From: Thermoplasmata archaeon
Lineage (GTDB): Archaea; Thermoplasmatota; E2; DHVEG-1
DNA: 64,000 bases
Assembly (NCBI GenBank): GCA_020054475.1
Contig: JAHWGJ010000003.1
Span: 30,141 to 94,140 of the forward strand
Direction: 5' to 3'
Shown here: one piece after another, positions 3,753 to 30,970 of the stretch
How the letters are laid out: each line of letters opens with the position of its first letter
How positions within the stretch are numbered: position 1 is the stretch's first letter
The notes under the pieces: generated by a model
Told to the model about the DNA's origin: nothing
What the model saw: the letters and a program-made list of their open reading frames with translations, nothing else
Database searches by the model: none
Made by a program: the position numbers and the translations under genes

Positions 3753-3879
3753 AAAAAAAAGTAATTAGCCAATAATGAAAATTTGCAAATTAGTAGTACA
3801 TTTATTTGATAAAAAAATAAGTAAAAAATAAGAATATTTATTAATATTATTTTTTCATGCATATAATAATAATTCTTTT

Positions 3880-3901
3880 GGAGGAAAATAATATTTCCTC
3901 C
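3880..3901. terminator. Perfect 8-bp stem hairpin GGAGGAAA-ATAATA-TTTCCTCC
   Basis: Read directly. It lies 128 nt downstream of the M28 stop and 17 nt before the left copy of the 29-bp repeat. Confidence 0.3.
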
Positions 3902-3918
3902 ATATAAATAAGAATTAT

Positions 3919-3947
3919 GTTCAGGATATAATTTATATATGAAAAGC
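3919..3947. repeat. Left copy of the perfect 29-bp direct repeat GTTCAGGATATAATTTATATATGAAAAGC (putative attL)
   Basis: Identical to 11899-11927. The flanking bases differ on both sides. Confidence 0.85.
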
Positions 3948-3982
3948 GGTCCTGAAGAAAGCTTTTAATTTTAAGATTATCC

Positions 3983-4010
3983 ATTCAAAACAAAAAACTT
4001 TGTTTTGAAT
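3983..4010. terminator. 12-bp perfect-stem hairpin ATTCAAAACAAA-AAAC-TTTGTTTTGAAT
   Basis: Read directly. It lies 30 nt downstream of the stop of the minus-strand gene 4040..4297. Confidence 0.35.
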
Positions 4011-4039
4011 CCTCCTGAGAGACAAAAGAAAAAATATAT

Positions 4040-4297
4040 TTATTTTATTTCTAAAATAAATGGAGAAAAAAATATTACAAGTCCAAATAAACCCAAAGTT
4101 ATACCTATTATACTATAGAGGGCAAGAAAGTATACAACAAGAAGATATATTCCAACTATCATAGAAATGAGTCCAATACTATGAACCATTAGTTTAACAT
4201 AGATACTCTTTCTACAAATATCTCTTATCCACATATAGATTATGCCAAAAAACCAAGCTCTCTGCCCCTTTGAACCATATATTGCCATTATTTTCAA
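4040..4297 (-). CDS. Small integral membrane protein (2-3 TM), hypothetical
   Basis: 85 aa with hydrophobic stretches (IGLISMIVGIYLLVVYFLALYSIIGITLGLFGLVIFF). It lies 8 nt downstream of the beta-propeller gene. Confidence 0.45.
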   Translation of the reverse strand: MKIMAIYGSKGQRAWFFGIIYMWIRDICRKSIYVKLMVHSIGLISMIVGIYLLVVYFLALYSIIGITLGLFGLVIFFSPFILEIK

Positions 4298-4305
4298 CCT
4301 ATCCT

Positions 4306-5826
4306 TTATTTTAATATTACAAATGGTCCAAAAATAAAACCATTTCTTGTTTCACTAATATCAAGAATATTAACTGTTACTTCAAATGGTCCAAGACCAA
4401 AAAAGAATCCTGTTGTAACAATTATTTCACTTTGTGGTAATAATTCTGAAATTGTTGTGGTTGTTTCTCCACCTGCTATCATCCAAAAAGAATCTAAAAT
4501 AATGCTGATCTCTAAATCATGAATTGATGAATCTCCATTGTTTTTAATAATAATTTCAACTCCAATCCCTCCATTGATTTCTATTGTAATATTATTATTC
4601 ACTTCGCCATGTCCAAATGCAAAAAGATCACCATAAAGATAACCAGAATCTACATATTTTGATCCAATATAGACAGTTCCATGTAAATCTATTGCAGGTG
4701 ATGAATACTGGTAATCATTAGTTGCAATATTTTTTCTCCATCTAAGAGTTCCATCGTGATTTAAAGCGATGAGATTTCCACCCCAACCACCATGTTTTGT
4801 AGCTACGAAATAAATGTTTCCGTCAGAGGATATTGCATATGTTCTTGATGTGCATTCATATTCATATGGTTCCCAACCTTGATAAATCCATTTTATACTA
4901 CCATCGGGGTTAACTGCATAAAAATAAAAACCTCCAATATAGATAGTTCCATCTGAACCGATTGCTGGTGTATCAGAACTACCTGTATCGATTTCAGTTC
5001 GCCATTTCATTGTACCGTTGGGATAGATAGCATATAAATAATCATCGTGTGAAGAAAAATAAATAATGCCATCATCATCTATAGAAGGGTTACTTAATGA
5101 ATCTCCTGCTCTAAAACGCCATAATAATGAGCCATCATTTGAACTAAGTGCATATAAATACTTATTATTAGAAGTAATATAAATTGTATTATTATTTGCT
5201 ATAGCTGGTGTTGAATATATCCAATCTCCTGTATCATAATGCCATTTCTCAGTTCCATTGGGATATAAAGCATATACTCGCCCATATGAATCAGGACCAA
5301 TTGATCCAAAATAAATAATTCCATCATCACTAATGGTTGGTGAACCCCAAATACTTCCTTCAGCATCATATTTCCATCTTAAAGTACCATCTAGATTAAT
5401 AGCATAAAGTGAATCATCTAAAGATCCAACATAGATACATTCATTCTCATAAAGTGAAGGAGAAGATAAAATCCAACCATTACAATCAAATTTCCATTTT
5501 TCTGTTCCATCTGGATTTATTGCATATAGATAATGATCCATACAACCTATGTATATAATTCCATTATTGTCAATAACAGGTGATGAATGAAAACCTGAAT
5601 CAGCAAGTAATTTCCATTTGATAAGACCAGAATTGTCAGCAGTACTATATAGGCTTTGACTCGTATGACGGTTATCATGCCCATATGTAGACCATGGTGA
5701 ATCCATCGGGCCATCAATAATACCATTTGATGGTTTTATAGATTCATTATCTAATCCAATAACAATTGGATGGAGTGATAATAGAATAAAAAGAAGAATA
5801 ATTAAAAATGAGGTTATTTTATTCAA
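4306..5826 (-). CDS. Secreted PQQ-like (BamB-like) beta-propeller repeat protein with a C-terminal CARDB-like domain ending GPFVILK
   Basis: Signal peptide, then about 8 repeats of the pattern DG(T/S)xKW(K/R)(F/Y)...SSPxIxxDGxIYxGSxDxxLYA(I/L). The C-terminal 100 aa is homologous to the 40084..40512 product. Confidence 0.8.
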   Translation of the reverse strand: MNKITSFLIILLFILLSLHPIVIGLDNESIKPSNGIIDGPMDSPWSTYGHDNRHTSQSLYSTADNSGLIKWKLLADSGFHSSPVIDNNGIIYIGCMDHYLYAINPDGTEKWKFDCNGWILSSPSLYENECIYVGSLDDSLYAINLDGTLRWKYDAEGSIWGSPTISDDGIIYFGSIGPDSYGRVYALYPNGTEKWHYDTGDWIYSTPAIANNNTIYITSNNKYLYALSSNDGSLLWRFRAGDSLSNPSIDDDGIIYFSSHDDYLYAIYPNGTMKWRTEIDTGSSDTPAIGSDGTIYIGGFYFYAVNPDGSIKWIYQGWEPYEYECTSRTYAISSDGNIYFVATKHGGWGGNLIALNHDGTLRWRKNIATNDYQYSSPAIDLHGTVYIGSKYVDSGYLYGDLFAFGHGEVNNNITIEINGGIGVEIIIKNNGDSSIHDLEISIILDSFWMIAGGETTTTISELLPQSEIIVTTGFFFGLGPFEVTVNILDISETRNGFIFGPFVILK

Positions 5827-7408
5827 AAAAAACCTCCTTTAAACAATTATAATGAAACCAATATAGTTGATGAAAATATTGATTAAATCTTGGCATTCGC
5901 ACTTCTAATGATGCCCATTCTCCCTCAACGTCATGCATATCTTTAGCCTTTGCACTAATAGTATACGATCCCCTTATATTCCATGTATGTGGTAATATTA
6001 TTTCTTCACTTGAGTTATATGGTCCGATCCAGCTAGTATTAGTGTTATCGCCCCAGTCTACCCAGAGGTAAACCTCATCATAATTAATATCAAATACAAT
6101 AAATGTATATTTTTGTTCTTCCCCAATCTTACCTACTGAAGATCCATTTATTCCTGGTTTCTCAGGAGGCGAATTATTTTCAACACTACCAAATGCAAAA
6201 AGATTGCCATATATAGACCCAAATTCTCCAAATTGAGAGCCAACATATACTGTACCATCTTTATCAATTATAGGAGATGAAAATTGATCATCAATAGCAG
6301 ATATTGTTTTTCGCCATCTAAGAATTCCATCTTCATTCAAGGCTATAAGATCTCCACCCCAACCACCATGTTTTGTAGTTACAAAATATACAATATTATC
6401 AGCAGAAATTGCATATGTTCTGGATGTACACTCATATTCATAAGGTTCCCAACCTTGATAAATCCATTTAATACTACCATCTGGATTAACTGCATAAAAA
6501 TAAAAACCACCTATGTATATTGTACCATCTATAGCAATTGCGGGTGTATCAGAACTACCCGTGTCAATTTCAACTCGCCACTTCATAGTTCCATTTGGAA
6601 AAACTGCATATAAATAATCATCCAGCGATGCAACATAGATTATTCCGTCGTCTCCCACAGTTGGACTACCTAACCCATCTCCAGTACGAAAACGCCAAAA
6701 CAATGATCCATTTAAAGGAGAAAGAGCATATAAATACTTATCATTTGAAGTAATATAAATAGTTCCATCCTCGCCTATTGCAGGTGTTTCATAAATAGAG
6801 TTGTCAGTATTAAACTGCCATTTTTCAGATCCATTAGGATATAATGCATAAATTTTTCCATTACTCTCTGAACCAAGAGAACCAAAATAAATAATACCTT
6901 CCTCATCAATAGTTGGTGAACCCCATATACTCCCTTCAGCATGAAATTTCCATTTTAAAGATCCATTTGGATAAATAGCATATAGATTATTATCAAAAGA
7001 TCCAACATAGATTGTTCCATCTTCTGCAAGAGCTGGTGAAGATAATATCCAACCACGGCAATTATAATGCCATTGTTCAGTTCCATCCTGATTAATAGCA
7101 TATAGAAAACCATCTTTACAACCAATATAGAGTACTCCATCATTATCAATAACTGGTGATGAATGAAAACCTGAATTTGCAAGAAATTTCCATTTTATTA
7201 ATCCAGGATTATCAGCTGTATTGTATGGACTTTGACATGTATGGCGGTTATCATGGCCAAAAGTTGGCCATGCTGAGTCCATCATACCATCATTAGTATA
7301 ATTTGATGGTTTTATCAACTTATTATCTAACCCTATAACCATTGGATGAATTGATAATAATACAAACAGAAGAATAATCCCCCAGATGATGGATTTGTTT
7401 TTCATCAT
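5819..7408 (-). CDS. Secreted PQQ-like beta-propeller repeat protein with a C-terminal PKD-like domain (paralog of 4306..5826)
   Basis: Same repeat pattern. It shares a 42-aa identical run with the neighbouring gene. The C-terminal segment PPEKPGINGSSVGKIGEEQKYTF...WGDN...HTW...GSYTISAKAKD is PKD-like. It overlaps the downstream paralog by 8 nt. Confidence 0.8.
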   Translation of the reverse strand: MMKNKSIIWGIILLFVLLSIHPMVIGLDNKLIKPSNYTNDGMMDSAWPTFGHDNRHTCQSPYNTADNPGLIKWKFLANSGFHSSPVIDNDGVLYIGCKDGFLYAINQDGTEQWHYNCRGWILSSPALAEDGTIYVGSFDNNLYAIYPNGSLKWKFHAEGSIWGSPTIDEEGIIYFGSLGSESNGKIYALYPNGSEKWQFNTDNSIYETPAIGEDGTIYITSNDKYLYALSPLNGSLFWRFRTGDGLGSPTVGDDGIIYVASLDDYLYAVFPNGTMKWRVEIDTGSSDTPAIAIDGTIYIGGFYFYAVNPDGSIKWIYQGWEPYEYECTSRTYAISADNIVYFVTTKHGGWGGDLIALNEDGILRWRKTISAIDDQFSSPIIDKDGTVYVGSQFGEFGSIYGNLFAFGSVENNSPPEKPGINGSSVGKIGEEQKYTFIVFDINYDEVYLWVDWGDNTNTSWIGPYNSSEEIILPHTWNIRGSYTISAKAKDMHDVEGEWASLEVRMPRFNQYFHQLYWFHYNCLKEVFFE

Positions 7409-7446
7409 TACCTCCCAATATAATATTAGATGTTCTGATATAAAAT

Positions 7447-7467
7447 CATTTGTAGCATTATTACTTG
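7447..7467 (-). promoter_or_regulatory. Shared island motif, copy 1 (plus strand CATTTGTAGCATTATTACTTG)
   Basis: Identical 21-mer to 8218-8238. It lies 39 nt upstream of the 7408 start. On the sense strand it is followed by a TATA-like TTTTATAT. Confidence 0.5.
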
Positions 7468-7549
7468 CTTTAATCCAACGCCTTCTGATAAGCTCCAGTA
7501 TTTAGCTAATATTACCCCGTATTCTTTATTTGATATAATCAGACTAAAT

Positions 7550-7598
7550 CTGAGGGTTTCTGATAAATTAGAATAATCAGGCTTAGAATAGCCCTCAG
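7550..7598 (-). terminator. Nested hairpin (CTGAGGG...CCCTCAG enclosing CTGAT...ATCAG)
   Basis: Read directly. It lies about 90-140 nt downstream of the stop of gene 7689..8129. Confidence 0.3.
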
Positions 7599-7688
7599 CT
7601 TATATTTGATTTAGATCTTAATATCTATGAATATATACTTTCAAATGATTTTTTTATCTATTTTGGATGCAGATAATGAATAATTGAT

Positions 7689-8129
7689 TTATAGGCCATC
7701 GTCATTGTTTTCAATAATATCAAATGCTTCCCCAAAGGCTATTAGCGTTTCATAAGTATAAAGACCATAATTGATAACCCCTAATGCAAAATTTAACAAA
7801 TTCAATGAATTTCTAAGCATACCTTGCTTTAGAAATAACAAGAGACAACTTGCAGATATAATACCAACCATAAGTGAAACATAATCAGCCATATCATCCA
7901 ATCCGCCTTCGAGAGGCCCATCAGGGTCAGTCCAATTTAGTTTGAGAATATTAAAATCAACCTGTTTCTCTTGCAGTTCCTCTATTCTATCAAGAATAGA
8001 ATTTTTCAATTCATCCTCATCAAAATCACAGATGTAAAGATATTTTTCACCTTCTATCGCAGAAACGTTTGGAATCATCACAATTAAAAATACTATGATT
8101 AAGCAAATTATTGATTTTATTTTCTTCAT
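7689..8129 (-). CDS. Hypothetical secreted/membrane protein
   Basis: MKKIKSIICLIIVFLIVMIPNVSA signal peptide plus C-terminal TM segments. The ATG at 8129 is preceded by GGGAGGT. The track's start at 8159 is a TTG. Confidence 0.5.
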   Translation of the reverse strand: MKKIKSIICLIIVFLIVMIPNVSAIEGEKYLYICDFDEDELKNSILDRIEELQEKQVDFNILKLNWTDPDGPLEGGLDDMADYVSLMVGIISASCLLLFLKQGMLRNSLNLLNFALGVINYGLYTYETLIAFGEAFDIIENNDDGL

Positions 8130-8212
8130 TTTATTTACCTCCCTTACGTAGACTCCCAAATATTATAATGTAATTCCAATTTAAAAGATTAACGCAGGTT
8201 AACCAGTATATT

Positions 8213-8238
8213 TGCAACATTTGTAGCATTATTACTTG
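8213..8238 (-). promoter_or_regulatory. Shared island motif, copy 2, including the dyad TGCAACATTTGTAGCA
   Basis: 21-mer identical to copy 1, plus a 5-nt extension that completes the imperfect palindrome TGCnACA-N2-TGTnGCA. It lies 84 nt upstream of the ATG at 8129. Confidence 0.5.
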
Positions 8239-8395
8239 GTGAATATTATGCTTAATGTTAGTTTTTATTTAGGCATAATTTAGTTATAGTTTAGGTGAAT
8301 ATAATGTTAATGTTTAACATGATTTTTTGATTGTATTAGTGATTTTATTAAACGAATTTTAATAGAAAAAATAGTGATTGTTGATGAAATTTTCC

Positions 8396-10294
8396 TTATC
8401 CAATAATACCCCAATCATCACAAATACCGAAACAGAAGGGCAATGATAGTAAAAACAATCCTCTTGCATTAATAAGTCGGATAAATTCTCCTGGATTTCT
8501 TGTCTGTATTTCATTTTCCCATATATAAAAGGGTTTACTTAATACCTCTAAATCAACATAATTCTCACCAGGTTCTAACTGTATAAGTTTCACATCAACA
8601 TCAAATCCAAAAACAAAAATGAACCCAAATGGCATATTTGATTTGCTTTTCGGCATAGTAATGCTTAATGGATCTGACCATGGACTCTCATCGCCATAGT
8701 TATCCTTAGATTTCACCTTTATAGAATAAGTACCATTTGCAGACCAGATATGTGATGAACTGACAGATAAACCTGAATCATATGGGCCAAGCCATCCTGA
8801 ATTTGTGCTGTCATCCCATTCAATCCAGTAGAAAACCTGATCTTCATCAGAATCTTCTGTTGATACAATATATGTATATGAATCGCCTGTTTTTCCTGAT
8901 GTAGGTCCATTAATTATAGGTTTATTAGGTGGGTTATTACTAGAAGTTATAACAACTGTTTTTGATATTGAAAATGCACTTTGACCGCTATTTGAATCTT
9001 CTGCTATTACTTGTACATCATATGTTCCAACTGATGACCATGAATGAGACCTAGTATCTACACTTCCACTACTTAAGAAACTACTCCATTCATCAATAGT
9101 ATCATCACCATTCCAATCCCATCCATATTTAACAGAATCATCATCCGGATCAGTTGTGCTAGTGGAAAACGATAATGATGACCCCATATTGCCTGAGCTG
9201 GGTCCTGAAGGTTTGCTAGGAGTATTTGGTGGATTATTAGCACCAGCAATTATTATCACTAATGTCGAAGAAAAACCACTTTGAGCTCCATGTTCATCTT
9301 CTGCTTTGGCTCTAAGATATCTAGTTCCAGTTCCGTAAAATGTAATTTTCACAGTACATGTACTAGAAGATGGATAAAAAGTTGTCCAATGACTTGGATC
9401 AATAATTCCATCATTATTAAAATCAAAACCATATTTTACATTATCACCATCTGGATCTATAGTACTTGTTATATACGTATATTGGGTTCCTTCTGTTACT
9501 ATTGTTGGACCATTTGGTTTACTTGGAGTATTAGGGGGTGTATTACTAGTTTCTTCTCCTTGTTGTAAACGTGTTGTACCAGTTGTCGTTCCAGAGAAAC
9601 CCTCAAGAATTGATCCAGGGCACCCTTCAAACTCGATTTGATATGTAATATCAAAGAAACTATCAACATTAAAATCACCAGAAATAAATTCAGTTAAAAT
9701 GAATTGGCCTGGACTCGGGAGACCATAATCCGAACCTGCTATTACTCTAAACGTACAAAAATCAGGATCACCAAATATTTCCCCATATAACTGAAAAATG
9801 TTACTTGGGAACATCTGAATTGGATCGCCCGGAGTTCGAGGTCCAGTATGAACTTCTAATGATACAGGTACTGCAAGATTTCGATTGAATCCAGCTAGAC
9901 TATCAGTACCTGAAACAGCCAGCTGAAGAGTAGCATCAAAAGTATGAACTTCGCCACCCAGTAGACCACCAGGATAGCTTAATATGTTATAAAAATTATC
10001 AAGTGTTGGATCCAGTTCCATTGTTGTTCCAGGAGATAGACCGTCAATGATATACATTGGATCATCAGGTGCAATATAAGGACACATTGCAGGTAAATCA
10101 ATTGTCCCTAATCCATTATCTGGCATGATGCATGAGTCAGTAAGTGATATAATTCCAACCACATTATCAAATAAGATATCCTGAGTCATTATATTGATCC
10201 CAAGAATTTCAGGTTTCTCATTGAATGCAGAAATAGTTACATTTGTCAATACGAGCGTAATACAAACTAAAATAATTATCAATTTCTTTTTCAT
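8396..10294 (-). CDS. Secreted protein with an unknown N-terminal domain, three PKD-like domains and a C-terminal extension
   Basis: Signal peptide MKKKLIIILVCITLVLTNV. Three repeats each open with (N)NPPN(T/K)PSKP(N/S)GP and contain WGD/WDW...G(T)Y motifs typical of PKD folds. Confidence 0.75.
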   Translation of the reverse strand: MKKKLIIILVCITLVLTNVTISAFNEKPEILGINIMTQDILFDNVVGIISLTDSCIMPDNGLGTIDLPAMCPYIAPDDPMYIIDGLSPGTTMELDPTLDNFYNILSYPGGLLGGEVHTFDATLQLAVSGTDSLAGFNRNLAVPVSLEVHTGPRTPGDPIQMFPSNIFQLYGEIFGDPDFCTFRVIAGSDYGLPSPGQFILTEFISGDFNVDSFFDITYQIEFEGCPGSILEGFSGTTTGTTRLQQGEETSNTPPNTPSKPNGPTIVTEGTQYTYITSTIDPDGDNVKYGFDFNNDGIIDPSHWTTFYPSSSTCTVKITFYGTGTRYLRAKAEDEHGAQSGFSSTLVIIIAGANNPPNTPSKPSGPSSGNMGSSLSFSTSTTDPDDDSVKYGWDWNGDDTIDEWSSFLSSGSVDTRSHSWSSVGTYDVQVIAEDSNSGQSAFSISKTVVITSSNNPPNKPIINGPTSGKTGDSYTYIVSTEDSDEDQVFYWIEWDDSTNSGWLGPYDSGLSVSSSHIWSANGTYSIKVKSKDNYGDESPWSDPLSITMPKSKSNMPFGFIFVFGFDVDVKLIQLEPGENYVDLEVLSKPFYIWENEIQTRNPGEFIRLINARGLFLLSLPFCFGICDDWGIIG

Positions 10295-10385
10295 ATTTTT
10301 ACCTCCATTACCCTTTATTCCTCTGATTATTATAATGCATATCTTATTATAAAAATGTGACGTTTGTTAACAAAATATTCTTTAA

Positions 10386-10411
10386 TGCAACTTTTGTAGC
10401 ATTTTAACTTG
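10386..10411 (-). promoter_or_regulatory. Shared island motif, copy 3 (TGCAACTTTTGTAGCATTTTAACTTG)
   Basis: 18/21 identity to copies 1 and 2, with the same dyad TGCAAC-N4-GTAGCA. It lies 91 nt upstream of the ATG at 10294 and 31 nt downstream of the flavodoxin-fragment stop. Confidence 0.45.
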
Positions 10412-10441
10412 CTGATTATGAATGAGATGGATAGGATTATA

Positions 10442-10729
10442 TTAGTTTTGCTTCAGTTTTTGAGCAAATTCTTTTGCATCGTTGATGTCCTCATCATTAG
10501 GTCTTCCTCTATTAGCAAACAAAAACTTACCCTTGCAAAAGAATTTTCCCTTGATGGAAGCATCCTTGGTAATAAGTAAATTTTCCATTTTTCTACATTC
10601 AAATCCTTCCCCTGAACCTGAAGTACCAAACAAAGCAACATTTCTTGATTTGAAATTATTATCTTTAATAAATTTCATCATAATTTTTGCAGGTTTACCA
10701 CCATAGCATCCAGAACCTAAATAAACCAA
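10442..10729 (-). pseudogene. Flavodoxin-family fragment (C-terminal two-thirds only)
   Basis: VYLGSGCYGGKP...VALFGTSGSGEG...RPNDEDINDAKEFAQKL matches the middle and C-terminal parts of short flavodoxin-like proteins. The N-terminal beta1/phosphate-binding loop is missing. The ORF opens with TTG and starts 8 nt from the integrase stop. Confidence 0.5.
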
Positions 10730-10736
10730 ACATTCA

Positions 10737-11768
10737 TTATTCAGTTTTGCATCTTGGACACTCGTTTGGTATTAATGGATTTTTAACAATCTCAGGTTTC
10801 ACATAACCTTGTTTTTCAACCTGAAGCAGAGTATTAGCTGCATCACGTCCACTAAGATGTATATACACCTCAGGCATACTTGAACTGCCAGTCCATCCTG
10901 CTAGAATCTTAAGAGTTGATTCATTCAAACCCTTCTTAGCTAAATCTGTAAGACGAGCATGGCGAAGTTTATGAGGACTAACTTTCTTTTTAATATCCGC
11001 ATCTTCAGCAGTGAATCGTACAATTCCATACACGCCACTAATCGTTAATCTCTTACCCCAAGTTGGAGTTGATTCAGAAACCCATAGAGGATATTTCTTA
11101 CTTAAACCAGAATTATTAAGTTTGTCTTTATATGGATGTATATCAAGCCACATTGAAAGATAATTTTGAGAGTTAATGAATCTAATAATTCTCTTACCAG
11201 TCTTGCCATCTACAACAATAAATGAGCCATTTTCATCAAACTCGATATCGTTAATATTCATCCCAACAAGTTCACCAACTCTCACGGCACTATCATATAA
11301 AACTGAGATTATTGCTTTTCTTTGCACAGATTCTGCTTTGTTTATCATTAATTTTACTTCTTCTGGATTCAGGACTCCATTAGGAAAATCATTACCAGAA
11401 TTTGCATAACCTGTTTTAATCCACCTAACACACTCAGGATAATCATCAGTGTTATACAGCCATTTGAAAAAATTCTTCAAAATTGATTTACATATAGAAA
11501 GTGAGCTTGGTTTTAATTCGTTTTGTCGTTGAATTAAATATTCTTTAATGTCTTGTTTAGTAATTTCAATAAATGGTTTGTTAAAATATTTTGCAAATTT
11601 AATTAATTGCAATAATTTATTTTCACAAGTCTGATATGCTGAATTATTAAGAGAATTATCCTCATAATATTCTTTTAAAACATCTCTATGTTTAGCGGGT
11701 AAACTATCTAGCCTACTCAATAGAGCTTCCGCTGATTTGTACATGATTTCACCAACAAAATTCATCAA
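10737..11768 (-). CDS. Tyrosine recombinase / phage-type integrase (XerC/D-like)
   Basis: Catalytic signature: ...DSAVRVGEL (Arg I), HKLRHARLT (His-x-x-Arg II), LAGW (Trp/His III) and EVYIHLSG (Tyr nucleophile). It also has an N-terminal SAM-like DNA-binding domain. Confidence 0.85.
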   Translation of the reverse strand: MMNFVGEIMYKSAEALLSRLDSLPAKHRDVLKEYYEDNSLNNSAYQTCENKLLQLIKFAKYFNKPFIEITKQDIKEYLIQRQNELKPSSLSICKSILKNFFKWLYNTDDYPECVRWIKTGYANSGNDFPNGVLNPEEVKLMINKAESVQRKAIISVLYDSAVRVGELVGMNINDIEFDENGSFIVVDGKTGKRIIRFINSQNYLSMWLDIHPYKDKLNNSGLSKKYPLWVSESTPTWGKRLTISGVYGIVRFTAEDADIKKKVSPHKLRHARLTDLAKKGLNESTLKILAGWTGSSSMPEVYIHLSGRDAANTLLQVEKQGYVKPEIVKNPLIPNECPRCKTE

Positions 11769-11898
11769 ATAATTCTACTCGAAAAAAGGAGTAGAAAACC
11801 TTTAAACGTAATAGTATTAGTAGGTTATATTCCTTTCGGTAGATAAAAATATTCTATGGGAGAGAAACCAATATTCCCTTATTAAAATTAAAAGTTGG

Positions 11899-11927
11899 GT
11901 TCAGGATATAATTTATATATGAAAAGC
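11899..11927. repeat. Right copy of the perfect 29-bp direct repeat (putative attR)
   Basis: Identical to 3919-3947. It ends 35 nt before the rps12 ATG. Confidence 0.85.
11912..11919 (+). promoter_or_regulatory. TATA box (TTTATATA) of the S12-S7-EF2 operon
   Basis: Archaeal TATA consensus, 44 nt upstream of the rps12 ATG and preceded by an A-rich BRE-like GGATATAA. GGGTGA lies 5 nt before the ATG. Confidence 0.55.
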
Positions 11928-11962: not shown

Positions 11963-12394
11963 ATGGGTAAAGGTATAAATTCAGCAAGGAAGCTTAAAAA
12001 AAGCAAAAGAAAGCAAAACTGGAATGACAGATATTACAAAAAAAGGGTTTTGCACTTAAAAGAAAAAGCAGATCCGCTTGAAGGTACAGCTCAGGCTAGA
12101 GGCATTGTACTTGAAAAAGTTGGAATTGAAGCAAAACAACCTAATTCTGCTATTCGAAAGTGTGTAAAAGTACAACTAATTAAAAATGGAAGACAAATTA
12201 CAGCTTTTGCCCCAGGCAATAATGCTATTGGATTTATTGATGAGCACGATGAAGTAATGGTCGAAGGTATTGGCGGTAGAATGGGAAGAAGTTTTGGAGA
12301 TATTCCCGGTGTAAGATTTAAAGTAATTAAAGTGAATGATGTATCTCTAAATCAAATGGTAAAAGGTAAAATTGAGAAGGCAATGAGAAGATAG
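11963..12394 (+). CDS. rps12: 30S ribosomal protein uS12
   Basis: 143 aa with [19 protein letters not shown]...ITAFAPG..., the typical archaeal S12 core. Confidence 0.95.
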
Positions 12395-29402: not shown

Positions 29403-30970
29403 GTTTTATTGATTTTTTATTACAACATTCTCCCGCATTAATTGTTGCTATACCGCTACTTGGTGCTTTTTTAACACCTCTAATAAGTAAGATAAATAAT
29501 AGAGTTAGAAATGTTTTTGTAATTCTTATTATTTTAATTACAACAATTTTAGTTATGTTACTAGCGTCAGATGTTTTTTCTGGAAATATTCACACTTATG
29601 TATTTGGATCACAAGATTTAACCGTACCTTTAGTGAGAATATTATTTGAAGTTGATGCAATGAGTGCTTTTATGGCCATCATTGGATCAATATTACTCCT
29701 TGTTTCTGTAATTTATTCTTGGTCATTCATTGATGAAAATTCTGGACTTGATAAATATTACACTTTAGTATTGTTATTAGCTGCTGGTATGTTTGGAATG
29801 ATGCTTACTGGAGATATGTTTAATTTCTTTGTATTTCTTGAAATTACATCAATTGCTTCTTGTGCATTAATTGCATTCTGGACAAATAAAGGTAAAGCAG
29901 TTGAGGCAGCTTTTAAATATATCGTTATAAGTTCTTTAGCTGCTCTTTTTATTTTATTTTCAATTGCATTACTATATGGACAATATAATGCATTAAATAT
30001 TGCGGTTCTTGGGAGTGTTATTCAATTTTCATATCTTGATAAAATTGCCTTAGTCTTACTTATTGCTGCTTTAGCTATGAAAGCTGGTATCGTACCAATG
30101 CACATGTGGCTTCCAGATGCTTATGGTAGAGCACCGGCTTCAGTTACAATTATACTCATCGGAGCAACTCAAGCAAGTTTATACGGTGTTTTTAGAGTTT
30201 GTTTTACTTTATATGGAAATACAATAAATCTTTCATCCGCGTCAATTGGCTGGATTATTGTGTTATTAGGTTTAATAACTATGTTGATTGGTGTTGCTAT
30301 GGCATTAATACAATCTGATTTTAAGCGATTAATAGCATTTAGTGCCGTTGCGGAAATTGGATTTATATTTTTAGGTATTGGAACAGGTTTGACATTATTC
30401 GCGAATAATCAGATGTTTGGTTTAATCGGTACAACTGCAATGAGTGGAGGTATTTTTCATATTATAAATGATTCATTGGATGTTGGATTATTATTCCTTG
30501 TCGCAGGTGCAGTATATTATGCCACAAAAGAAACATCATTAGATAAGATGGGTGGTCTTGCTAGACATATGAAATATACTACGATTTTCTTTATAATAGG
30601 ATTACTTGCAATATCAGGTATTCCTCCTATGAATGGTTTTGCTTCAAAATTATTAATTTATGAGTCAACTTTTCAACTAAACCCAATTTTATCTATTGTT
30701 GCTATACTTTCAAGTATAATGTTACTGGCAGTATTTGTAAAAGTATTTCACTCCGCATTTCTTGGACCTGCCCTACCGAAATTTAATGGAGTAAAAGAAG
30801 TTCCAAAAACAATGTTATTTGCTATGGGAATAATCGCATCAATTATAATCATATTTGGTTTATTTCCAGATTTAGTAATTAATAATATTGTTGATCCTGC
30901 TGTTAATGCATTAATCAATTATAGCGATTATATTAGAGAAGTAATTCCAACGTTTACTGGAGGTTTTTAA
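29399..30970 (+). CDS. mnhD: MnhD/MbhH-like antiporter subunit (NuoL/M/N family)
   Basis: 523 aa, about 14 TM, with KAGIVPMHMWLPDAY and SGIPPMNGFASK, both hallmarks of complex-I antiporter-like subunits. Confidence 0.88.
   Translation: MSFIDFLLQHSPALIVAIPLLGAFLTPLISKINNRVRNVFVILIILITTILVMLLASDVFSGNIHTYVFGSQDLTVPLVRILFEVDAMSAFMAIIGSILLLVSVIYSWSFIDENSGLDKYYTLVLLLAAGMFGMMLTGDMFNFFVFLEITSIASCALIAFWTNKGKAVEAAFKYIVISSLAALFILFSIALLYGQYNALNIAVLGSVIQFSYLDKIALVLLIAALAMKAGIVPMHMWLPDAYGRAPASVTIILIGATQASLYGVFRVCFTLYGNTINLSSASIGWIIVLLGLITMLIGVAMALIQSDFKRLIAFSAVAEIGFIFLGIGTGLTLFANNQMFGLIGTTAMSGGIFHIINDSLDVGLLFLVAGAVYYATKETSLDKMGGLARHMKYTTIFFIIGLLAISGIPPMNGFASKLLIYESTFQLNPILSIVAILSSIMLLAVFVKVFHSAFLGPALPKFNGVKEVPKTMLFAMGIIASIIIIFGLFPDLVINNIVDPAVNALINYSDYIREVIPTFTGGF

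Follow-up and report, generated by a model that had tools for sequence, protein, structure and literature searches.

A repeated boundary sequence in genomic islands of uncultured Thermoplasmatota-type archaea, a candidate gene-cassette junction

What is the role of a short sequence that recurs, always in one orientation, in front of three genes for secreted proteins in an archaeal genomic island? The question is raised by a stretch of 64,000 nt (hereafter the window; positions 30,141 to 94,140 of contig JAHWGJ010000003.1, assembly GCA_020054475.1, Thermoplasmata archaeon), in which the 21-mer CATTTGTAGCATTATTACTTG lies exactly at 7447-7467 and 8218-8238 and a third copy, with 3 mismatches, at 10391-10411. 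A preliminary description of the window had read this motif as an operator or upstream activating sequence (UAS) of the island or, more speculatively, as a cassette boundary or recombination sequence. The second idea gives the best fit to the arrays, breakpoints, shared cassettes and mosaic copies reported below. More specifically, we propose that the motif comprises the core and right half of a repeat that marks cassette junctions or recombination hot spots and abuts the promoters of the cassettes, a reading that sequence comparison leads us to favour while placing it somewhat short of an even chance.

The window copies and their repeat family

The window has a guanine-cytosine content of about 28%, encodes the archaeal signal recognition particle (SRP) RNA, TBP, MCM, the PolD large subunit, EF-2, S12 and S7, and its DNA was detected in marine-sediment metagenomes. 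The three motif copies share one orientation and were matched in 0 of 100 dinucleotide-preserving shuffles; their coordinates and identities (two exact, one 18/21) are as first described. That no other intergenic copy exists in the 64 kb is borne out as well: the 11-nt core AATGCTACAAA has no further exact copy there, the family profile described below finds only the three copies plus one match at E=0.16, and the window's 56 kb of housekeeping DNA contain none. All three copies precede minus-strand genes, here called A, B and C, with signal-peptide-like N-termini at the starts 7408, 8129 and 10294, and each is followed on the sense strand by a TATA-like element, both as previously described. 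The extension TGCAAC-(A/T)TTT-GTAGCA noted for the second and third copies is present there. The motif had been given as 21-26 nt long, but the conserved block measures about 50 nt in copy B (8210-8259) and copy C (10382-10434).

Copy B (minus strand) is a full element that follows the stop of gene C and precedes the gene B promoter. It consists of a left part, the core CAAGTAATAATG and the right part GCTACAAATGTTGCAA, includes the exact 21-mer and covers profile positions 5-54 (E=4e-12). Copy C (minus strand), which has the 3 mismatches and a mutated core CAAGTTAAAATG, is also full-length (profile positions 3-55, E=8e-11); it begins 8 nt past the stop of a flavodoxin fragment, upstream of gene C, and contig L132 has the same downstream promoter region, but behind a canonical copy. 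Copy A (7439-7469, minus strand) contains the exact 21-mer in a right-half copy, that is, core and right part only (profile positions 24-54; left score 4/13). Its left side is replaced by a module of about 105 nt, termed class b (7468-7573, minus strand), which in the alignment is fused to the core. The TATA-like boxes, all on the minus strand, lie 3 nt past the motif, following CAAATG, in the gene A promoter (TTTTATATC, 7437-7445), 30 nt past it in the gene B promoter (CTTTTAAATTGG, 8176-8187) and 38 nt past it in the gene C promoter (TTTTTATAATAAG, 10343-10355).

A scan of GTDB genomes, with one genome per species, matched the motif at 43 places, mostly isolated chance matches in bacteria. 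Six loci in archaeal metagenome-assembled genomes (L002, L005, L013, L016, L017 and L026; loci and contigs carry such L numbers throughout) share extra 5' sequence in the sense orientation, and one of the six has two copies; five are labelled Thermoplasmatota or Thermoplasmatales and one Bathyarchaeota. A metagenome scan returned at least 120 loci, and most of the matches listed share extended flanks. After removal of near-duplicates, 107 copies yielded the family profile c.AT.aacATCATAATCAg-CAAGTAATAATGCTACAAA-TGtTgcAAta, a longer 5' version of which starts at TCATGCTAACC. In summary form the element, of about 45-57 nt, reads ..CATCATAATCAG-CAAGTAATAATGCTACAAA-TGTTGCAATAA, and the 21-mer corresponds to the core and right half of (TCATGCTAACCATTAA)CATCATAATCAG-CAAGTAATAATG-CTACAAATGTTGCAATAA. 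A profile search of 93 family contigs (268 kb) from the matches listed identified 153 copies.

The sharp right edge seen at +19 is an artefact, because the scan pattern fixed identity through +18. The exact 19-mer is found in only about 17 of 60 'secondary' copies (those that did not fetch their contig), and the edges of the element are fuzzy, with conservation falling off gradually on both sides. No family member was found in IMG/VR; the 9 matches there are all unrelated coding sequences, and a viral origin was rejected on this ground. As judged from the sequences recovered, the element is lineage-specific and resides in uncultured marine-sediment Thermoplasmatota-type archaea. A search of the literature on Thermoprofundales islands found nothing relevant.

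Arrays, breakpoints and mosaic copies

Copies form arrays. Of 44 contigs with two or more copies, 43 have every copy in one direction; spacings are 157-6169 nt (median about 680 nt), and an element usually starts 0-60 nt past the stop of the preceding co-directional gene, at times overlapping it. The copies are concentrated in the parts of contigs with tRNA genes or an integrase, and none lies in housekeeping parts (window, L113, L124 and L134). ORFs (open reading frames) occur between copies on either strand in L002, L005, L013 and L072, and clear reversed or convergent genes in L002, L005, L013, L072, L085 and L124. The cargo between copies includes an S-adenosylmethionine (SAM) methyltransferase, GNAT acetyltransferases, ABC and MatE transporters, a nitroreductase, a redoxin, an S9 peptidase, a heliorhodopsin and secreted proteins, an accessory-gene mix that, by analogy, resembles the cargo of integron cassettes.

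An all-versus-all blastn comparison of the family contigs revealed that internal ends of homology blocks accumulate at either border of the element, with 64 of 176 upstream-sharing blocks ending at +15 to +29 and 50 of 182 downstream-sharing blocks starting at -15 to -1. L065, L068 and L072 share a methyltransferase cassette (MKKWYESLFENY...) that is homologous from copy to copy, with unrelated DNA outside both copies; L149 has the upstream context of L065 in common and is missing the downstream copy. The gene B cassette has a homologue in L092 (85% DNA identity) with copies on both sides and a different upstream neighbour, and a contig from run X3 departs from the window sequence just beyond copy B. 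Four contigs have in common the motif and, ahead of it, some 110 nt that flank tRNA-Thr on its 3' side; directly after CAAA they diverge completely. The motif shows no differences even where identity of the cassette DNA around it drops to 86%, which argues that it is under selection.

This segment of about 110 nt is conserved and leads to a motif copy from the 3' ends of two different tRNA-Thr genes (anticodons GGT and CGT) or, in L060, from a tRNA 3' fragment. It is found in L113 (660-870), L160 (1219-1431), L162 and L060, contigs that are unrelated past the copy, and resembles a fixed end behind which a variable island sits at tRNA-Thr.

Incomplete copies give a further view of the junctions. 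Twenty-one are left-half-only, with a perfect left half and core and then unrelated sequence; 29 are right-half-only by score, and about a dozen of these, including copy A of the window, have a left side unlike the family. The only piece common to the mosaic half-sites is the 12-nt core CAAGTAATAATG. One side of these half-copies is perfect and the other looks random, a mosaic pattern and not one of mutational decay. The class b module of copy A is joined at the same point in L046, L061, L076, L087, L096, L115 and L134, always as ..TAAAG|CAAG, and in L046 (4820-4946) and L096 (1761-1886) a class b module of 125 nt sits precisely where an intact left half and the core would otherwise meet. The module has no conserved fold and resembles a small insertion targeting the element.

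According to the junction reading, DNA would be broken and rejoined at or beside the core, most likely by a putative site-specific recombinase; alternatively, copies could exchange DNA by homologous recombination, or insertions could target the core. Cassettes equipped with their own TATA promoter and Shine-Dalgarno leader would thereby be shuffled within genomic islands, and the TATA boxes after the copies would belong to these cassette promoters. Three such junctions would survive in the window, within an island of about 8 kb that has decayed and itself appears to have integrated via a 29-nt att site beside rps12. The repeat may also affect cassette expression, which is not required to explain its conservation.

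Among known systems, integron cassette arrays, archaeal examples of which were reported in 2022 (PMC9668308), come closest; on this analogy, the arrangement works alike but does not pass the tests that define an integron (a folded attC, the core-site consensus and an integron integrase). Integron arrays, the sequence-uniform attC families of chromosomal super-integrons and clusters of attC sites lacking integron-integrases (CALINs) likewise consist of tandem units, most with a single gene and with ORFs that usually share one orientation, separated by a recurring site directly after the stop codon of the preceding ORF. They too carry diverse accessory cargo, one cassette can be found in different arrays, and most arrays have no adjacent integrase. 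Tandem co-oriented sites that divide gene-sized units, and cassettes present in different arrays, are the integron-like traits found for our element. Unlike attC, it is defined by sequence, with neither the attC hairpin fold nor the RYYYAAC/GTTRRRY pair: by eye, the consensus offers TGCTAAC and GTTGCAA, each matching at 5/7 positions and mutually complementary at 4/7. The integrases neighbouring the element (window and L013) are XerA-like and far below integron-integrase (IntI) cut-offs. Many of its cassettes have their own TATA promoter in place of a common Pc promoter, and the window integrase is co-directional with the array, a further difference from integrons. The preliminary description had already judged that the motif is not a classical attC site, and the lack of a hairpin and of an integron integrase agrees with it.

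Several observations weigh against a cassette junction. The evidence comes entirely from assembled sequences, the contigs were chosen because they contain the motif, and repeats can cause breaks or false joins in metagenome assemblies. The arrays have no recombinase linked to them: tyrosine or serine recombinases are absent from all family contigs but the window and L013, although most of these contigs are shorter than 3 kb. The window integrase has a separate 29-nt att site of its own, and motif copies are missing from five loci with integrases 54-70% identical to it, several of which contain secreted NosD, PKD or peptidase genes. No attC-type hairpin was found among 93 folded copies, in which the sole recurrent pairing is a 4-bp AGCA/TGCT stem, and no arm/spacer combination gave a significant inverted repeat; without hairpin or significant dyad, the element is unlike attC and also unlike a classical recombinase core with 11-13-bp arms. 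A clean cassette indel considered between L090 and L098 was rejected, as the difference begins at a motif and does not end at one. Finally, the enrichment of signal peptides downstream of copies and the clustered start-codon distances, both given below, are also explained by a promoter-linked function.

Promoter function and other explanations

Such a function is the basis of the operator or UAS explanation, in which the block binds a transcription factor that controls the adjacent downstream promoters, the regulon is rich in secreted proteins and the spread of copies reflects the re-use of one promoter module. We consider this possible but unlikely. It accounts directly for the window, where all three copies precede TATA boxes and secreted-protein genes, and the association extends to the family: signal-peptide-like N-termini were found in 35 of 66 downstream co-directional genes vs 53 of 210 other ORFs on the same contigs (odds ratio 3.3, p=6e-5). 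The enrichment before secreted-protein genes that the preliminary description had put forward as a check thus holds, and it leaves room for a regulatory role. Two promoter modules recur behind the motif, even before non-homologous genes. The first, CAAA-N3-TTTTATAT...GGAGGTAAT-ATG, is that of copy A, and its CAAA-N3-TTTTATAT arrangement is also present in L076, L160, L141, L068 and L093; the second, TGTTGCAA...TAATCTTTTAAAT...ATTACATTATAAT...GGGAG, is that of copy B and is common to many other contigs. That motif, TATA box and leader are shared by non-homologous genes (window A, L076 and L160), and that the motif is conserved beyond the neutral level, both agree with a regulatory site.

Placement of the copies speaks on both sides. 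Downstream of 123 assessable copies, 65 co-directional starts were found within 300 nt, with start-codon distances from the motif peaking at 40-50 and 73-98 nt; 45 copies (about 37%) meet the 3' end of an opposite-strand ORF first, often 0-40 nt away, and 13 have no nearby ORF (counts are approximate, as ORF calling was naive and some opposite-strand ORFs may be spurious). Placement upstream of a gene transcribed away from the motif is therefore not constant, being seen for 65 of the 123 copies, and between convergent genes at some copies (L013, L085 and L124) there is no room for a promoter. Archaeal UAS and operators, for example the sites of Lrp/Ptr2-type or TrmB-type regulators, adjoin the B recognition element (BRE) and TATA box. 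Similarly, about half of the copies of our element lie 2-38 nt upstream of a TATA box with secreted genes enriched downstream, but their position relative to BRE/TATA is not fixed: the motif-to-TATA spacing is 2, 11, 14-16, 30-32 or 38 nt across copies (3, 30 and 38 nt in the window), and many copies have no downstream promoter.

The sequence itself also departs from what is usual for such sites. Its conservation is much longer and stricter, and near-perfect identity over 19-45 nt combined with mosaic half-copies is unlike degenerate factor sites. The left half, the most recurrent part among non-exact profile matches, hugs the stop codon of the upstream gene. The motif had been called palindromic, a description that the data do not support: the dyad ATAATGCTACA-AA-TGTTGCAATAA pairs at 8/11 positions in the family consensus and the version first proposed at 6/7, 22-33% of composition-matched shuffles equal the best family dyad, and the TGTTGCA arm is present in only about 40-60% of copies. 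Nor is the element specific to the island, with 153 copies on 93 contigs among the matches listed; related integrase islands with secreted-protein genes carry none. Of the operator originally proposed for the island, the association with secreted-protein genes thus stands, while its restriction to the island and a dyad above chance do not.

A selfish short repeat of the repetitive extragenic palindromic (REP), miniature inverted-repeat transposable element (MITE) or Correia type, copying itself into intergenic DNA and having its flanks shuffled secondarily by homologous recombination, is more doubtful still. The family is high in copy number, strictly intergenic and confined to a single lineage, and in four metagenome runs, from sediment or seawater, motif-containing bins of the window have 10-40x the read depth of their flanks. 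Another short module, class b, inserts into the element, and the uniform orientation per contig would suit strand-specific insertion. REP and bacterial interspersed mosaic elements (BIMEs), Correia elements of Neisseria and 'mobile promoters' are likewise short, high-copy, lineage-specific and intergenic; they too can be placed between the end of a gene and a promoter, can contain or adjoin promoter signals and serve as hot spots of recombination. The hallmarks of REP or MITE sequences (a stem, terminal inverted repeats, target-site duplication and sharp ends) were not found, however, in the element, which has fuzzy edges and no palindrome. Copies form same-direction arrays clustered in islands and are not dispersed: none lies in the 56 kb of window core genes or the housekeeping parts of L113, L124 and L134. 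The mosaic half-copies suggest that the element breaks at a fixed core, and no pair of filled and empty sites was found among the fetched contigs, all of which had been chosen for carrying the motif.

That the copies are scars of tandem integration, leftover att sites of successive elements that used the XerA-like integrase of the island, is very improbable. An integrase does lie beside the window array and within about 3 kb of the copies in L013, and arrays start beside tRNA genes in L113, L160 and L002. Yet the island is bounded by a different, perfect 29-nt direct repeat, its integrase is truncated, the five loci with related integrases have no motif, and typical units measure 0.3-1.2 kb and contain no integrase. 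In Xer/dif systems, too, short specific sites flank gene modules, and a XerA-like recombinase gene is near two of our element loci. Archaeal dif consists of 11-bp inverted arms and a 6-bp spacer (PMC2958812), an 11-6-11 architecture that our element does not have: for a layout of about 11-bp arms and a 6-8-bp spacer, the best candidate, ATCATAATCAGCA-AGTAATAA-TGCTACAAATGTT, has an 8-bp spacer and pairs at 8/13 positions, not above shuffles. In addition, its copies are direct and not alternating, and the islands with integrase homologues are without it.

Scarcely credible is a left half that is translated as a mini-ORF (consensus MLTINIIISK, with TAA TAA inside the motif) and couples or insulates translation of the neighbouring genes: period-3, wobble-like variation at -18, -15, -12, -9 and -6, an ATG in several copies, at times with a Shine-Dalgarno-like GGTGG, and left-half-only copies that often match the consensus through the double stop codon would suit it, but many copies, including all three in the window, have no start codon, the stop codon is lost in copy C, a left half is absent from copy A, and the reading on the opposite strand, FVALLLADYDVNG, is equally protein-like. 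The left half (-33 to +9 relative to CAAG) does vary at third positions, and many copies form a mini-ORF of 9-11 codons that ends in the double TAA inside the motif; the reverse frame is FG-GAP calcium-loop-like. Coding sequence as such was rejected, as both frames are protein-like but open for only 4-114 codons, often with no start codon.

Other candidate identities were also rejected. Folding of 93 copies of 104 nt as DNA gave mean energies of -5.5 and -5.9 kcal/mol for the two strands vs -4.7 and -4.8 for shuffles, and the element has no stable or conserved fold as RNA or DNA. At the Rfam gathering threshold only the SRP RNA was found in the window, a permissive search of 7350-10500 gave sub-threshold snoRNA noise off the motif, and C/D-box features were checked by eye and dismissed. 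A tRNA-derived att site does not apply, with zero tRNA genes in the window and the tRNAs near some arrays not overlapping the motif. For a serine-recombinase site with a central-AA dyad, the +19 edge is artefactual, the dyad is not significant and a Hin-like query found no resolvase-like ORF among the family contigs, which are mostly short.

The host island and the meaning of the repeat

The window copies lie in an island bracketed by a perfect 29-nt direct repeat, GTTCAGGATATAATTTATATATGAAAAGC, whose left copy is a putative attL (3919-3947, plus strand) and whose right copy is a putative attR (11899-11927, plus strand) in the rps12 promoter region (ATG at 11963). Between them, over about 8 kb, are an 85-aa ORF, two propeller genes, genes B and C, a truncated flavodoxin ORF and the integrase. 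As the pair of perfect 29-mers brackets the island, these and not the 21-nt motif are probably the integration site. A 13-nt inverted pair lies just inside the repeats (CTTTTAATTTTAA at 3962-3974 and TTAAAATTAAAAG at 11882-11894).

Gene A (5819-7408, minus strand) encodes a secreted PQQ-like beta-propeller (Pfam PF13360, PF13570; signal-peptide-like N-terminus). Its paralogue A' (4306-5826), also on the minus strand, overlaps it by 8 nt; the two have about 79% DNA identity in shared stretches and many internal 120-nt blade repeats. Because only the upstream propeller gene has a motif and promoter, the pair is probably one operon inside one cassette. Gene B (7689-8129, minus strand) encodes a small protein with a signal-peptide-like N-terminus and no family match, and gene C (8396-10294, minus strand) a secreted protein with PKD repeats (Pfam PF00801, PF18911; signal-peptide-like N-terminus). 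Exact-protein look-ups for the products of genes B and C returned no match.

The integrase gene (10737-11768, minus strand) encodes a XerA-like tyrosine integrase that ends at CPRCKTE, about 130 C-terminal residues short of its homologues of 463-468 aa. It scores 45.9 bits against the integron-integrase model TIGR02249 (cut-off 265), its best match being archaeal XerA (116 vs a cut-off of 220), and the L013 integrase gave the same outcome against both models. Abutting it is the flavodoxin ORF (10442-10729, minus strand), which is missing the first 43 or so profile positions. A single deletion or rearrangement seems to have truncated both, and with both truncated the island is now probably immobile; it is a decayed integrated element of about 8 kb. 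The closest integrase homologues are labelled Thermoplasmatota or Thermoplasmatales; judged by these labels and those of the metagenome-assembled genomes that share the repeat, the window probably belongs to Thermoplasmatota. One locus, L174 (an ENA scaffold of 12.2 kb), keeps the order PolD-MCM-EF2-S7-S12 and has a shorter integrase, 70% identical, at the same place beside rps12, with cargo unlike that of the window and zero motif copies; the site upstream of rps12 thus seems to be a recurrent integration spot.

Near the left end of the island, a module termed e (GTCTCTCAGGAGGATTCAAAAC, 4002-4023, minus strand) follows an 85-aa membrane ORF (4040-4297). Elsewhere this module leads directly into ATCATAATCAG and the motif, and in the window into a hairpin (3983-4010), the motif being missing. 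The hairpin after module e is perfect (ATTCAAAACAAAG-TT-TTTGTTTTGAAT; 3983-4023, minus strand). Module e is high-copy in metagenomes, with a read-depth spike of 80-220 at 3801-4101. Joints in Logan-unitig contigs that connect motif flanks to about 4003 were considered as excision evidence and set aside as too ambiguous.

Taken at its widest, the junction reading would describe a previously undescribed archaeal gene-cassette system without integron hairpins, built from self-promotered cassettes, a sequence-defined site of about 45 nt around the core CAAGTAATAATG and a putative non-integron recombinase, and housed in islands rich in secreted proteins. On the sequence comparisons presented here, this wider claim is a tentative one and clearly less probable than the junction itself. 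If the element were instead the site of a regulator, it would rank with the largest promoter-linked motifs known for a group of uncultured archaea. In metagenomes of this lineage the motif can serve as a simple sequence tag, both for islands of the flexible genome and for cassette boundaries; with a repeat family at these boundaries, assemblies break there. If the cassette system is real, it would represent a second archaeal route to modular gene capture, mechanistically unlike integrons in relying on a plain sequence site and on promoters carried by the cassettes themselves, and it would help to explain how secreted enzymes and surface proteins diversify in abundant uncultured sediment archaea.

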